Source: a virus | Lineage: Duplodnaviria > Heunggongvirae > Uroviricota > Caudoviricetes | Reading direction: 5' to 3' (one strand) | DNA: 22,417 nt | IMG/VR virus record: IMGVR_UViG_3300000301_000076 | Position numbers and translations under genes: made by a program | Shown: piece after piece, positions 16,113 to 19,018 of the stretch | How positions within the stretch are numbered: the first letter of the stretch is position 1 | How the letters are laid out: each line of letters begins with the position of its first letter | Notes under the pieces: generated by a model | Told to the model about the DNA's origin: nothing | Seen by the model: the letters and a program-made list of their open reading frames with translations, nothing else | Database searches by the model: none

Positions 16113-16577
16113 ATGCTAGGCATCCTGATGACAAAGCTAAAAGTTGCTTTGATTATGCTGGCTGCCGTTCTTTTCGTTCTTGTCGGCGCTTACACGATGG
16201 GCGGAAATGCGGCGCGACGAGCAATGGAAGAGAAGGCAAAACAGGAAGACAGAAAACGACTTCAAAACACAGTGAAAGNNNNNNNNNNNNNNNNNNNNNN
16301 NNNNNNNNNNNNNNNNNNNNNNNNNNNNNNNNNNNNNNNNNNNNNNNNNNNNNNNNNNNNNNNNNNNNNNNNNNNNNNNNNNNNNNNNNAGATGCTTCTG
16401 CCGTTCATCGTGAGTTGTATGATAAGTGGGTGCGTCATTAAACCACAAACAGCCAGCGTGTTGTTCTGCGATGGGGCTGAGCCTATCTATATCAGCAATA
16501 ATGATGTAATGACTGAAGAAACCGAACGCCAAATCCTTTTTCACAATACGATGGGAGAGAGGGTTTGTGGTTGGTGA
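16113..16577 (+). CDS. Spanin locus: i-spanin (N-terminal TMD plus charged coiled coil) and o-spanin-like lipoprotein segment (N-run 16279-16389 hides the junction)
   Basis: MLGILMTKLKVALIMLAAVLFVLVGAYT is a signal-anchor followed by a charged helical region (Rz-like). After the gap, MLLPFIVSCMISGC has a lipobox-like signal and a short Cys-containing periplasmic tail (Rz1-like). Whether the arrangement is embedded, overlapped or separated cannot be seen. Confidence 0.55.
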   Translation: MLGILMTKLKVALIMLAAVLFVLVGAYTMGGNAARRAMEEKAKQEDRKRLQNTVKXXXXXXXXXXXXXXXXXXXXXXXXXXXXXXXXXXXXXXMLLPFIVSCMISGCVIKPQTASVLFCDGAEPIYISNNDVMTEETERQILFHNTMGERVCGW

Positions 16578-16584
16578 TGTCGAA

Positions 16585-16606
16585 GTTCCCCTCAAATGAG
16601 GGGAAC
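16585..16606. terminator. Perfect palindrome gttcccctca-aa-tgaggggaac between convergent operons; possible bidirectional terminator
   Basis: 10-bp arms read directly; lies 8 nt after the spanin stop and near the toxin 3' end on the - strand. No clear U-tract on either side, so terminator function is uncertain. Confidence 0.35.
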
Positions 16607-16714
16607 ACATTATTCTNNNNNNNNNNNNNNNNNNNNNNNNNNNNNNNNNNNNNNNNNNNNNNNNNNNNNNNNNNNNNNNNNNNNNNNNNNNNNNNNNNNN
16701 NNNNNNNNNNNNNN

Positions 16715-17290
16715 AGATTTTGTAGGATAGAACAAAGAACGCTCGTTGTTACCAACCAGCTGGATAAAGCCTAAACTTTTATAAAACGCCTTGGCTTTGT
16801 CATTTAACGCCTCAACGAAAAGTCCATGAATGCCTACAGCAAGAGATGCATTGTACACAACGCGCATTGCATGTGTTACAAGNNNNNNNNNNNNNNNNNN
16901 NNNNNNNNNNNNNNNNNNNNNNNNNNNNNNNNNNNNNNNNNNNNNNNNNNNNNNNNNNNNNATTGAGCCAAATCCTTGACCTTGAAGGGACTTGTCCAAA
17001 GCCAGCCTACCCAAAGTAACACTTGGAACATTCCGATAAGGAACCTTCTTTTGTTTGCTTCTTGAAGGTAAGGACTCCTTTTCAAAACAACTACCTGACA
17101 AAGTGTAATATCCTAACACTTTTGGCCTTTCTTCTTGAGTGCAAAGCACATAAGCACGAAGAATTTTTCCCTCATGCTGCCTTTTTAAGTGGTTGGCTAA
17201 AAAGGCGTTTAGTGACTCTTCGCCGCAATCAAAACCGTTTAGATCATAATCTTTCTCTCCAGAGAAAATCTCTATCGTTGTATTGCTCAC
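16715..17290 (-). CDS. GNAT-family acetyltransferase toxin, AtaT/TacT-like (3' end lies inside N-run 16617-16714; internal N-run 16883-16961)
   Basis: The translation is close to my recollection of E. coli AtaT (YDLxxFDCGEExLNxFL, KILRAYVLC, VLGYYTLSGSCFE, QKKVPYxNVPSVTLGRLAxDxSLQGQGFG, HAMxVVxxASLAVGIHGLFVEALNxKA, FYKSLGFIxLVG, FYPTKS). GTG start at 17290, 5 nt after the antitoxin stop. Confidence 0.85.
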
Positions 17291-17297
17291 GAGTAAA

Positions 17298-17567
17298 CTA
17301 CTCCATGCTTTTCAGACGATCAGCAGCTCGTTTCAGCTTGTCGTTCGGTGCCGGAGGATTGCTTATAGCGTCCATAACCAGATTCCAGGATTCTTCATTC
17401 AGAACTAGTCTACGGTGTTGCTCTATAACTTTCACGGCACGTTCAGATGCACTGCTAACCATAAACTGAGTAATGCTCTGGTTAGACATTGCGGCAGCTT
17501 CCTCGATGATGCTTTTATCGTCATCGGTTAATCTCAAATCGATGCGCTGCTTTTTTAGTGCTGACAT
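17298..17567 (-). CDS. DUF1778 ribbon-helix-helix antitoxin, AtaR/TacA-like
   Basis: MSALKKQRIDLRLTDDDKSIIEEAAAMSNQSITQFMVSSASERAVKVIEQHRRLVLNEESWNLVMDAISNPPAPNDKLKRAADRLKSME matches recalled AtaR almost along its whole length. Start taken at the internal ATG (17567) because AGGAGG precedes it; the ORF-track start at 17606 is rejected. Confidence 0.85.
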   Translation of the reverse strand: MSALKKQRIDLRLTDDDKSIIEEAAAMSNQSITQFMVSSASERAVKVIEQHRRLVLNEESWNLVMDAISNPPAPNDKLKRAADRLKSME

Positions 17568-17577
17568 GTATTCCTCC

Positions 17578-17605
17578 TGATGGCCGTGATGTAGGAAGGC
17601 CATCA
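17578..17605 (-). promoter_or_regulatory. Inverted repeat TGATGGCC-N12-GGCCATCA immediately upstream of the antitoxin RBS; candidate operator of the TA operon
   Basis: 8-bp perfect arms read directly from the sequence. TA operons of this family are autoregulated by the antitoxin-toxin complex binding palindromes at the promoter (established knowledge); the assignment here is inference. Confidence 0.35.
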
Positions 17606-17885
17606 ATCTCCTCTGTTCAAACTGAGTTTTCGACTCAAAAATTACTTTAAAAGGCTATAGCCCATTACGTGTGCATTATCAAATTGTGTACGGCATATCA
17701 CCGTACTTGTAATATAGAGGTCATTGTTACTTTTTTCAACAGACAAATACAAGCTATGATTGCCAATTGTTAACCACAACCTACCATTTAACCTTTACAC
17801 CGCAGCCGTAGGCATTTAGGCTATATCACATATAAGAAAACAAGTTGTTTCAGACGATAATTATATACGCAAAGGGAACTCTCCA

Positions 17886-18628
17886 ATGACCAAGATCTTT
17901 GTGGTTGGCGGCACAAAGGGCGGGCCTGGCAAATCCACCGTTGCCCAGCAAATTGCCGTTTGCCTGAAAGTCAAAAAGAAGAAGAAGGTTTATATTACCG
18001 ATATAGATATNNNNNNNNNNNNNNNNNNNNNNNNNNNNNNNNNNNNNNNNNNNNNNNNNNNNNNNNNNNNNNNNNNNNNNNNNNNNNNNNNNNNNNNNNN
18101 NNNNNNTGTGAAGACCGTCGACAGAACGAAGACCTTGAGCTGATTCCTTTTGCATACGTTCAGGATGACATCATTAAGCACCTAAAATCGCTTCAGGGTA
18201 GAGCTGAGTTTGTAGTGGTAGATGCTGGTGGCTTCGACTCCGAAATTCAGCGACAAGCGATGCTGATGGCTGACGTTATCATTATCCCGCTGCGTCCTAA
18301 GCGTCGTGATTTGAAATCTTTACGTGACATCGATCCTATTATCGACAATGTTCGCAATGTAAACGATAAAGTGAAGGTCCGCGCGGTCATGAACCAGTGC
18401 CCGGCTTTGCCATCACAAGTGTCTCGCATTCTGGCGGCTAAAGAGATTGTTGAGACGTTTGGAATCGAGTCTGCGCCAGTCAATCTATATAACCGCAACG
18501 TCTATGATGATGCGGAAGAGTCTGGTCGTTCTATCTTTGAAATGACCGGTAGCGAGCGCGACAAAAAGGCGGAAGCCGAGTTTGAAGAATTTGTAGATTA
18601 TCTGTTGAGTCTGGAGGAAGAAGAATAA
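17886..18628 (+). CDS. parA: ParA-family partition ATPase, small type Ib-like (N-run 18011-18106)
   Basis: Deviant Walker A at the N-terminus (VGGTKGGPGKST), VVVDAGG motif, about 245 aa. ATG 17886; stop overlaps the next start (TAATG at 18626-18630). Confidence 0.85.
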
Positions 18629-18987
18629 TGTCCATGAAAATGGGTGACCTAGCAAAGCGCAAAGAGCCTGATGCACCGGCTAAGAACACAACTCCTTTGC
18701 GCCAACCAGTCAGACCACAAGGACGCCCGACTCGTGGCAAAGAGAAAATTAAAAGCCGCACTATGTCACTGGAAGACGAATACTTCGAGCTTCTGGAAAT
18801 GATGAAGTTTATCCCTCGTTTCGAGAAGTTCACCCGCTCTGATGTGATTCGTGCTGCTATTTTCCATCTGGCAGAGAAGTCACCGCAGGAAATCGAGGAC
18901 ATCGTAAAGCTGAACGAGGCGATCACAGCTGCCGATGTCACGATGCGTACCGATGAAATTAAACGCGAGTTGATGAAGAAAGGTTAA
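18628..18987 (+). CDS. ParG-like centromere-binding protein (basic disordered N-terminus, C-terminal ribbon-helix-helix-like)
   Basis: 119 aa, Lys/Arg/Pro-rich N-terminal 45 aa, then a predicted strand-helix-helix segment (MSLEDEYFELLEMMKFIPRFEKFTRSDVIRAAIFHLAEKS). Translationally coupled to parA. Classic small ParA plus small partner architecture. Confidence 0.55.
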   Translation: MSMKMGDLAKRKEPDAPAKNTTPLRQPVRPQGRPTRGKEKIKSRTMSLEDEYFELLEMMKFIPRFEKFTRSDVIRAAIFHLAEKSPQEIEDIVKLNEAITAADVTMRTDEIKRELMKKG

Positions 18988-19018
18988 TAATGTGGGCTGT
19001 CTAGCCCACATTATTTTA
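18988..19018 (+). terminator. Rho-independent terminator after the partition operon (aatgtgggct / gtct / agcccacatt, then ATTTTAATT)
   Basis: 10-bp perfect stem, 4-nt loop, T-rich tail, starting 1 nt after the parG-like stop. Confidence 0.65.

Follow-up and report, generated by a model that had tools for sequence, protein, structure and literature searches.

The 22,417-nt stretch of DNA analysed here (the window) is an SSU5-group phage-plasmid of E. coli and is 99.9% identical to phage Cyrano/pLF82. Matching records (139 PLSDB plasmids together with phage Cyrano and pLF82) share 99.9-100% DNA identity, and in them the gene pair examined here is annotated as a GNAT acetyltransferase and a DUF1778 protein. 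Genes for tail, holin, endolysin and Rz/Rz1 are followed by this toxin-antitoxin pair on the opposite strand and then by parA. The slot is a variable cargo position, with other genes there in SSU5 and PhiR41_1. The features of the locus are as follows.

16585-16606, no strand assigned: GC-rich hairpin of 9 bp, lying where the Rz1 and toxin genes converge.
16610-17290, minus strand: GNAT toxin gene, GTG start at 17290, stop codon at 16612-16610.
17298-17567, minus strand: antitoxin gene, 89 aa, ATG at 17567, stop codon at 17300-17298.
17573-17578, minus strand: Shine-Dalgarno sequence AGGAGG, 5 nt ahead of the antitoxin ATG, read directly from the sequence.
17568-17704, minus strand: predicted 5' untranslated leader, about 135 nt long and comprising three stem-loops, its start placed from promoter geometry.
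17578-17605, minus strand: leader stem-loop c, TGATGGCC-N12-GGCCATCA, sequence confirmed, RNA fold predicted.
17622-17638, minus strand: leader stem-loop b, TTGAGT-CGAAA-ACTCAG, predicted fold.
17653-17663, minus strand: leader stem-loop a, GGGC-TATA-GCC, extendable, predicted fold.
17688-17706, no strand assigned: predicted operator, inverted repeat GTACGG-N7-CCGTAC, extended AGTACGGTGATATGCCGTACA on the minus strand.
17711-17739, minus strand: sigma-70-type promoter candidate, -35 TTGAAA at 17739-17734, 17-nt spacer, -10 TATATT at 17716-17711.

The gene pair itself is already known from GenBank and RefSeq annotation and from a 2023 paper that names CYRAN_26 and CYRAN_27 a KacT-type toxin and its antitoxin and reports them transcribed 35x and 60x above prophage background, respectively, in an LF82 lysogen (PMC9928086). 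'KacT', as used for Cyrano, denotes the family, and RefSeq calls the toxin only 'GNAT family N-acetyltransferase'. The antitoxin gene comes before the toxin gene, with 7 nt between them. The hairpin at 16585-16606 lies 4 nt past the toxin stop on the minus strand; it gives a terminator-like match on the plus strand, has a good T-run on that strand only, and is likely a terminator common to the Rz1 and toxin genes. A 'RelE/ParE toxin' label for a neighbouring 119-aa ORF was rejected, as no support for it was found.

Two runs of N lie in or beside the toxin gene, at 16617-16714 (98 N) and 16883-16961 (79 N). In records matching the unmasked flanks at 100% identity, these places contain 17 nt and 1 nt, and the masks of the window are overlong by 74-86 nt in all 15 mappable cases. 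Because the masks do not carry true length, the real toxin, resolved from the identical records, has 173 aa (522 nt) and not the 226 aa of the window ORF. Direct translation across the masks yields a false 226-aa protein with sub-threshold GNAT scores. We replaced it with the reconstruction, and with that sequence only, not with the masked ORF, do the GNAT Pfam models clear their cut-offs (Acetyltransf_7, 33.6 against 27; Acetyltransf_1, 33.0 against 20.7). The boundary at 16715 set by the first-pass annotation is merely the edge of a mask, and the gene runs on to 16610. That annotation had also named loss of the acetyl-CoA-binding residues from the unmasked sequence as an argument against the pair; these residues are intact, as are the catalytic ones. 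The acetyl-CoA motif Q-x-x-G-x-G is present as LQGQGFG at residues 102-108, with G108 kept, and the catalytic tyrosine is Y144 (Y144 in AtaT, Y145 in KacT). The toxin is identical to AtaT at 14 of 18 mutationally tested residues, including G108 and Y144 (PMC7595197), and differs by A26S, R40E, R71K and K77R, the last two being conservative. Position 40 is acidic in KacT as well as here. Judging from the sequence, R40E and A26S could shift the tRNA preference of the toxin. Its translation signals are the GTG start and a poorly spaced GGAG.

The earlier view of the locus as an AtaRT-like GNAT/DUF1778 type II pair on a phage-plasmid is borne out by comparison with PDB entries: the toxin matches the AtaT (1.4e-79) and KacT (1.4e-74) structures over its full length, and the antitoxin matches KacA (6.6e-42) and AtaR (1.3e-40). 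The antitoxin is assigned to Pfam PF08681 (TacA1/DUF1778) at 5.7e-26 and has the corresponding layout, an RHH DNA-binding N-terminus followed by a toxin-neutralising C-terminus (DUF1778/TacA1). Identity of the toxin is 69.4% to AtaT and 67.6% to KacT, which are themselves 67.4% identical to each other; that of the antitoxin is 79.5% to KacA and 76.1% to AtaR. As the toxin stands as far from KacT as AtaT does, the pair represents a third lineage of the AtaT/KacT clade. The sequence features of clade A (AtaT/KacT/AcaT) are found here: the acetyl-CoA motif, the catalytic Tyr, most tRNA-contact residues, a DUF1778 antitoxin and the operator motif. Orthology was rejected both with E. coli AtaT/AtaR proper (the proteins are 69% and 76% identical and the DNA 66%, and the replicon is another) and with K. 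pneumoniae KacT/KacA proper (67.6% and 79.5% identity). NCBIfam has no AtaT- or KacT-specific HMM, hence it gave no subfamily call for the toxin. The clade A toxins AtaT, KacT and AcaT have one target profile in common (PMC9177977), and for the present toxin the clade A pattern, Gly plus Trp, Tyr, Phe and Met, would be expected.

The promoter candidate at 17711-17739, with 10 of 12 matches, is the best promoter-like site within 16500-17950, and related loci have -35 and -10 blocks that align with it, immediately ahead of their operators. No second promoter was found in the interval from the operator to the hairpin at 17578-17605. The inverted repeat GTACGG-N7-CCGTAC begins 5 nt past the -10 element, so it covers the expected transcription start. 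It is the sole match to this motif in the window (0 expected in shuffles), and 88 of 91 related antitoxin genes have the motif upstream, as does the chromosomal O157 ataRT. The half-sites are those of the crystallised 27-bp KacAT operator, AAATGTACGGTTATTAACCGTACATGA, which covers the kacAT start site (PMC6698736), and R8, D10 and R12 of the antitoxin are identical to the KacA residues that read operator DNA. By homology to KacAT, 17688-17706 would be the true repressor-binding site of the operon.

The first-pass annotation had looked for the operator elsewhere, some 100 bases downstream of that site, in the palindrome TGATGGCC-N12-GGCCATCA. The palindrome exists as described, with two 8-nt arms (17578-17585 and 17598-17605) that are 100% complementary across a 12-nt spacer. 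It is statistically unremarkable alone; its significance comes from its position and its conservation. The corresponding RNA folds into a stem of 9 bp closed by a loop of 12 nt, and the 3' end of this stem-loop takes in the first base of the Shine-Dalgarno sequence. The predicted fold has an energy of -13.1 kcal/mol (z = -2.8). A covariance model built without the present sequence finds this stem-loop at E about 1e-4. In the correct alignment given by a hairpin-only covariance model (R1), from which the pair counts are taken, 90.8% of cells are paired among 21 distinct relatives and 8 of 10 pairs are changed on both sides. Covariation is 0.477, compared with 0.259 +/- 0.025 in shuffled and 0.02-0.18 in slid controls, in an alignment of related sequences fitted by the covariance model, so that these numbers overstate independence. 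The position is occupied more widely still. In most of 57 distinct leaders, hairpins of differing sequence end no more than about 2 nt from the Shine-Dalgarno sequence. Their mean z is -2.0, 40 of the 57 fold at -9 kcal/mol or below, and in 23 leaders, against 5.7 expected, the segment adjoining the ribosome-binding site ranks among the most stable 10% of the locus. The flagged palindrome most likely exists at the RNA level, as a hairpin within a conserved leader.

Is there nevertheless a case for an operator? A perfect inverted repeat just ahead of an antitoxin gene, unaltered in close phage-plasmid relatives (L058-L085), could serve as an operator or second operator through which the antitoxin or the toxin-antitoxin complex autoregulates the operon, and palindromes are bound by RHH antitoxins. 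Yet the arms are unlike the GTACGG/CCGTAC half-sites read by KacA R8, D10 and R12, residues identical here, and a repeat with these half-sites is already present nearby, at the promoter. The placement of the palindrome right at the 5' end of the operon, as had been claimed, is apt insofar as it touches the Shine-Dalgarno sequence beside the ribosome-binding site, but the best promoter match is about 100 nt further upstream. Moreover, relatives with near-identical RHH domains have unrelated arms at this place that are still complementary. Arms that turn over with pairing kept, while the DNA-reading residues are invariant, are the signature of an RNA stem and not of a site for the present repressor. 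The palindrome is therefore probably not an operator, and we give the operator or second-operator reading very little credence.

Hardly more probable is a chance repeat without function. Perfect 8-nt inverted repeats with spacers of 3-20 nt are indeed common in this DNA (19 in the window, spread over about 11 places; shuffles give 6.0 +/- 2.9), but chance would not readily place a hairpin ending at the Shine-Dalgarno sequence at a like position in most related leaders despite sequence turnover, nor make it detectable by a model trained on other sequences. The region might also be coding, if the antitoxin began at the upstream ATG 17603, which would lengthen its N-terminus by 12 residues and give the 101-aa form of the Cyrano record. 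That ATG is in frame, has GAGGAG ahead of it and is the start used in the Cyrano annotation; it is out of frame, however, in relatives of 89-97% identity, which have a 13-nt loop. The downstream ATG at 17567 has the ideally spaced AGGAGG, corresponds to residue 1 of both KacA and AtaR, and is the start in RefSeq (89 aa). A start at 17603 is the most improbable of these readings. Two roles for the hairpin itself were rejected: an H-type pseudoknot between its pyrimidine-rich loop (CCUUCCU) and the Shine-Dalgarno sequence on geometry, there being no linker across the 9-bp stem, and an intrinsic terminator or attenuator because no U-run follows the stem.

The hairpin beside the ribosome-binding site is one of three in a leader that, reckoned from the promoter, would be about 135 nt long. 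Leaders from Enterobacter, Lelliottia, Huaxiibacter, Salmonella, Morganella and metagenomes share its architecture and spacing. Folding each relative independently to minimum energy recovers stem-loop a, at -100 to -84 from the ATG, with stems that differ among them (for example TAGGC/GCCTA, CAGGC/GCCTG, TAGGT/ACCTA); stem-loop b is predicted in independent folds of relatives at about -75 to -55, again with differing stems (for example GAGCC/GGCTC, TAAGC/GCTTA, AAGCC/GGCTT, GGTC/GACC). The local hairpins are significantly more stable than shuffles, but the whole 152-nt leader is not (z = -1.4). MAFFT alignments of 20 and 11 leaders analysed with RNAalifold gave no helix or a mere fragment at the palindrome, which we attribute to stems of unequal length falling out of register; the full-leader covariance model (R2), with 78.8% of cells paired, inherited this misregistration and understates the structure. 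Rfam covariance models gave no family match to the leader, only sub-threshold chance matches, and nothing relevant emerged when the literature was searched for stem-loops in the leaders of GNAT/DUF1778 operons. It is an evenly balanced proposition that a subset of AtaRT/KacAT-family operons, the present copy included, has an undescribed conserved leader of about 135 nt with three stem-loops that adds post-transcriptional control. If so, the leader would be a layer acting on antitoxin mRNA stability or translation atop operator-based conditional cooperativity.

Taken together, we consider it highly probable that the locus holds a complete type II toxin-antitoxin operon belonging to the AtaRT/KacAT clade, carried as accessory cargo of an SSU5-group phage-plasmid between the lysis cassette and parA, with its operator at 17688-17706 and with the palindrome as a leader stem-loop. 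Toxicity, neutralisation, tRNA target and DNA binding of the present pair are ascribed here by homology to AtaRT/KacAT. The free toxin dimer would acetylate the amino group of charged tRNAs with acetyl-CoA and so stop translation, and the antitoxin C-terminus would block both toxin dimerisation and acetyl-CoA binding. A complex of four antitoxins and two toxins on the 17688-17706 palindrome, overlapping the transcription start, would repress the operon. The most likely role of stem-loop c would be to set the stability of the antitoxin mRNA, its translation, or both. It may shield the 5' end of the message once processing has occurred in the AU-rich stretch ahead of it, and may also be an insulator that leaves the strong AGGAGG site exposed.

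By analogy, the pair may serve in plasmid addiction, and post-segregational killing would be the natural expectation from GmvAT-type plasmid systems. Many toxin-antitoxin systems protect against phages, and the variable cargo slot would suit a main role in anti-phage abortive infection instead of plasmid maintenance. Expression of the pair in the lysogen (PMC9928086) also fits that role. We nevertheless regard it as unlikely: the location beside parA and the precedent of GmvAT on Shigella pINV (cited in PMC6698736) suit maintenance, and no anti-phage role is reported for the AtaT/KacT clade in the literature searched. Neither protein matches a defence model in PADLOC (2023 database), an absence that is weak evidence.

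These assignments bear on what to do with the locus. An EMSA on the flagged palindrome would use the wrong DNA, the relevant site being 17688-17706. Since operator half-sites and DNA-reading residues are common to this pair and chromosomal ataRT, cross-repression between resident and incoming copies, or anti-addiction, becomes a concrete and testable question; a search of 5426 complete E. coli genomes matched chromosomal ataRT in about 1600.

Among known systems, GmvAT (Shigella pINV) and other plasmid GNAT systems resemble the present one in setting, as GNAT/RHH pairs beside partition genes on a low-copy extrachromosomal replicon. The leader recalls the ompA-type 5' UTR stabilisers, in which a leader of about 130 nt has stem-loops, one of them immediately 5' of the ribosome-binding site; this is an analogy only, with no sequence relationship. 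AtaR-AtaT of E. coli O157:H7 (PDB 6AJM and 6GTS, among others) is like the present pair in gene order, the 6-7 nt gap and protein lengths, and shares G108, Y144, most tRNA-contact residues and the GTACGG-N7-CCGTAC half-sites, yet the loci are only about 66% identical in nucleotides, ataRT lies on the chromosome between livJ and panM, and the present toxin has a GTG start and the R40E, A26S, R71K and K77R changes. KacA-KacT of Klebsiella pneumoniae (PDB 5XUN; 5ZGN with operator DNA) is like it in antitoxin residues R8, D10 and R12, in interface residues M65 and I68, and in operator half-sites and their position at the transcription start (predicted here). K77 and N70 of the present antitoxin are as in AtaR, whereas KacA has R77 and Q70. 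In the left operator half-site the outermost base is A here against T in KacAT, and the central 7 nt also differ. In O157 ataRT (about 45 nt) and kacAT, the members studied best, the leaders are short and without a hairpin, unlike the long, three-hairpin leader described here, so the hairpin is dispensable for the basic system. The structured leader conserved in many other family members may explain differences in antitoxin:toxin expression.

The first-pass annotation recognised an AtaRT-like pair of GNAT toxin and DUF1778 antitoxin at 16715-17605, and at the level of the clade this assignment is right. The two reading frames are separated by 7 nt between the antitoxin stop and the toxin GTG:

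17567 to stop 17300-17298, minus strand: antitoxin ORF, ATG start, 89 aa
17290 to stop 16612-16610, minus strand: toxin ORF, GTG start, 173 aa as reconstructed

The antitoxin matches Pfam TacA1/DUF1778 (5.7e-26) and, in the PDB, KacA (5ZGN, 6.6e-42) and AtaR (6AJM, 1.3e-40); the toxin matches AtaT (6GTS, 1.4e-79) and KacT (5XUN, 1.4e-74) over its full length. Because in global alignment the toxin is 69.4% identical to AtaT and 67.6% to KacT (AtaT and KacT themselves share 67.4%), and the antitoxin 76.1% to AtaR and 79.5% to KacA, the pair forms a lineage of its own, the third in the AtaT/KacT clade, orthologous to neither. The window's runs of N differ in length from the DNA they mask: 15 of the 15 masks that could be mapped on 95-100% identical records are 74-86 nt longer than the DNA they replace (the mask at 16617-16714 is 17 nt in reality, that at 16883-16961 one base), which inflates any ORF length or coordinate that crosses a mask. 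Translated straight from the window, the toxin comes to 226 aa, against a real length of 173 aa rebuilt from an identical record; the reconstructed protein clears the Pfam gathering thresholds for GNAT, which the masked translation fails.

The acetyl-CoA-binding residues, on whose presence in unmasked sequence the AtaT-like reading leaned, are intact. Gly108, needed by AtaT for acetyl-CoA binding, and the catalytic Tyr144 are both present; AtaT loses its toxicity wholly or in part when they are replaced (G108D, Y144F; PMC7595197). The toxin also keeps L27, F30, H34, R37, S76, S78, K79, K81, K82, Y85, R95 and L136, with conservative changes at R71K and K77R and differences from AtaT at A26S and R40E; position 40 is acidic in KacT too. 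The clade A toxins AtaT, KacT and AcaT have very similar aminoacyl-tRNA targets, carrying Gly and hydrophobic amino acids (PMC9177977), and our best prediction is that the present toxin would share this profile. The antitoxin shares with KacA the operator-reading residues R8, D10 and R12 (PMC6698736) and the interface residues M65 and I68, and its positions 70 and 77 are of the AtaR type (N, K).

The window comes from a phage-plasmid of the SSU5 group. Escherichia phage Cyrano (OV696614) and pLF82 match positions 16400-17900 at 99.9% identity, and pPK8276-110kb at 100%; 139 plasmids in PLSDB cover at least 80% of this interval, and the plasmid matches overall are mostly rated non-mobilizable. 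With the Cyrano annotation mapped on, the gene order runs from tape-measure through tail genes, holin, endolysin and Rz/Rz1 to the two opposite-strand genes of the pair, then parA, a 119-aa ORF, helicase and primase. In place of the operon, SSU5 and PhiR41_1 have two unrelated forward-strand hypothetical genes between Rz/Rz1 and parA, which makes the operon accessory cargo of a variable slot (16610-17885). Two hairpins are probable terminators:

16585-16606: 9-bp GC-rich hairpin where the Rz1 and toxin genes converge
18986-19015: 10-bp perfect hairpin directly after the 119-aa ORF

The 119-aa ORF (18628-18987, plus strand) overlaps the end of parA and carries the Cyrano label 'RelE/ParE putative toxin'. 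Its only match is phrog_5111 (unknown function), with none in Pfam or the PDB, and by its position it is more likely a ParA partner (centromere-binding protein) than a RelE/ParE toxin.

As an annotated toxin-antitoxin module the pair is not new. The Cyrano record gives the name 'KacT Acetyltransferase-type toxin' to CYRAN_26 and 'putative antitoxin' to CYRAN_27, expressed 35-fold and 60-fold above prophage background in an LF82 lysogen (PMC9928086); RefSeq uses 'GNAT family N-acetyltransferase' and 'DUF1778 domain-containing protein'. No functional study of this pair turned up in the literature searched, and no PADLOC defence model matched either protein. A maintenance (addiction) role is putative, as is one in abortive infection; adjacency to the partition genes and expression in the lysogen fit maintenance.

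The palindrome that had been proposed as operator, TGATGGCC-N12-GGCCATCA at 17578-17605, is indeed present, but the operator of this family lies elsewhere. KacA4-KacT2 was crystallised on the 27-bp duplex AAATGTACGGTTATTAACCGTACATGA, and the palindrome it represents spans the kacAT transcription start (PMC6698736). The window has the KacAT half-sites, GTACGG-N7-CCGTAC, just once (17688-17706; 0 expected by chance), and the site starts 5 nt downstream of the -10 in the region's best promoter-like match:

17739-17711, minus strand: TTGAAA-17-TATATT, 10/12

The same motif stands upstream of the antitoxin ATG in 42/42 related loci from bacterial genomes and 46/49 from viral contigs, as well as in O157 chromosomal ataRT and two further plasmid variants, at -34 to -242 from the ATG; promoter blocks and operator can be aligned among closer relatives. 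On sequence grounds we take this motif to be the operator. Two related viral contigs (L095, L096) have, about 140-175 nt before the antitoxin ATG, a degenerate operator copy (GTACAAAAGCAGGCCGTAC) in the usual place and an intact one ~33 nt further upstream.

A perfect 8-nt inverted repeat with a short spacer is no rarity here: the window holds 19 (at ~11 places; 6.0 +/- 2.9 in shuffles). On the coding strand the palindrome reads UGAUGGCC-(12 nt)-GGCCAUCA. The arm shares its last base with the Shine-Dalgarno AGGAGG that comes next, and a gap of 5 nt leads to the ATG. The fold of the palindrome as RNA has an energy of -13.1 kcal/mol (z = -2.8). Close phage-plasmid relatives keep the arms, with a loop of 12 or 13 nt, while more distant loci carry other hairpins in the same place (GACCGCCC/GGGTGGTC, UGACCAUUU/AAAUGGUCA, CAGCAGGA/UCCUGCUG, GCUAUCA/UGAUAGC, GGCCUCGCC/GGGAUGAGGCC). 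A hairpin of -9 kcal/mol or lower lies within 40 nt before the Shine-Dalgarno in 40 of 57 distinct leaders, mostly ending within ~2 nt of it (mean z -2.0, dinucleotide shuffles); in 23 of the 57 this 40-nt stretch belongs to the most stable 10% of windows at its own locus (5.7 expected), the leaders being related and any p-value inexact. A covariance model from nine relatives, with the window lineage left out, detects the window hairpin (E ~1e-4). Across 21 distinct sequences, whose alignment is fitted to this model and so biased towards structure, 90.8% of cells are paired, 8/10 pairs show changes on both sides, and the covariation score is 0.477 (shuffles 0.259 +/- 0.025, 0/500 reaching it; slid partners 0.02-0.18). 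The arms vary freely in the same loci in which the DNA-reading residues of the antitoxin are invariant, and the palindrome therefore behaves like an RNA stem, not like a site of this repressor.

The Cyrano record starts a 101-aa antitoxin at an in-frame ATG in the 5' arm (17568-17606, minus strand). We rejected this start as unlikely because the 13-nt loop of some close relatives throws it out of frame; KacA and AtaR begin at the Met matching the downstream ATG.

The hairpin is the last of three in one leader architecture, operator to ATG, shared by the window lineage, Enterobacter soli, Huaxiibacter, Lelliottia, Salmonella, Morganella and several metagenomes, with stem-loops at about -100..-84, -75..-55 and -43..-10. 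In the window these are:

17653-17663, minus strand: first leader stem-loop
17622-17638, minus strand: second leader stem-loop
17578-17605, minus strand: third leader stem-loop

Each is recovered by independent minimum-energy folding, the stems varying among lineages; shorter leaders have the last one or two only. No Rfam family matches the leader and a literature search found no description of one like it; it is the sole element of the locus that may be new. By analogy with 5' UTR stabilisers, our preferred reading is that the hairpin beside the ribosome-binding site would protect the mRNA of the antitoxin, perhaps once it has been cleaved in the preceding AU-rich stretch, and may keep a strong ribosome-binding site free, favouring the antitoxin over the GTG-initiated toxin.

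The experimentally studied O157 ataRT and kacAT differ in this respect, as their leaders of 45-50 nt have no stem-loops. Chromosomal ataRT is found in ~1600 E. coli chromosomes (1616 places) among 5426 complete genomes; in this search some genomes held both it and the phage-plasmid copy (up to 2 places per genome). The two share only ~66% DNA identity. The O157 ataRT has the same operator half-sites and RHH DNA-reading residues as the phage-plasmid copy, and cross-repression or anti-addiction between them is conceivable.
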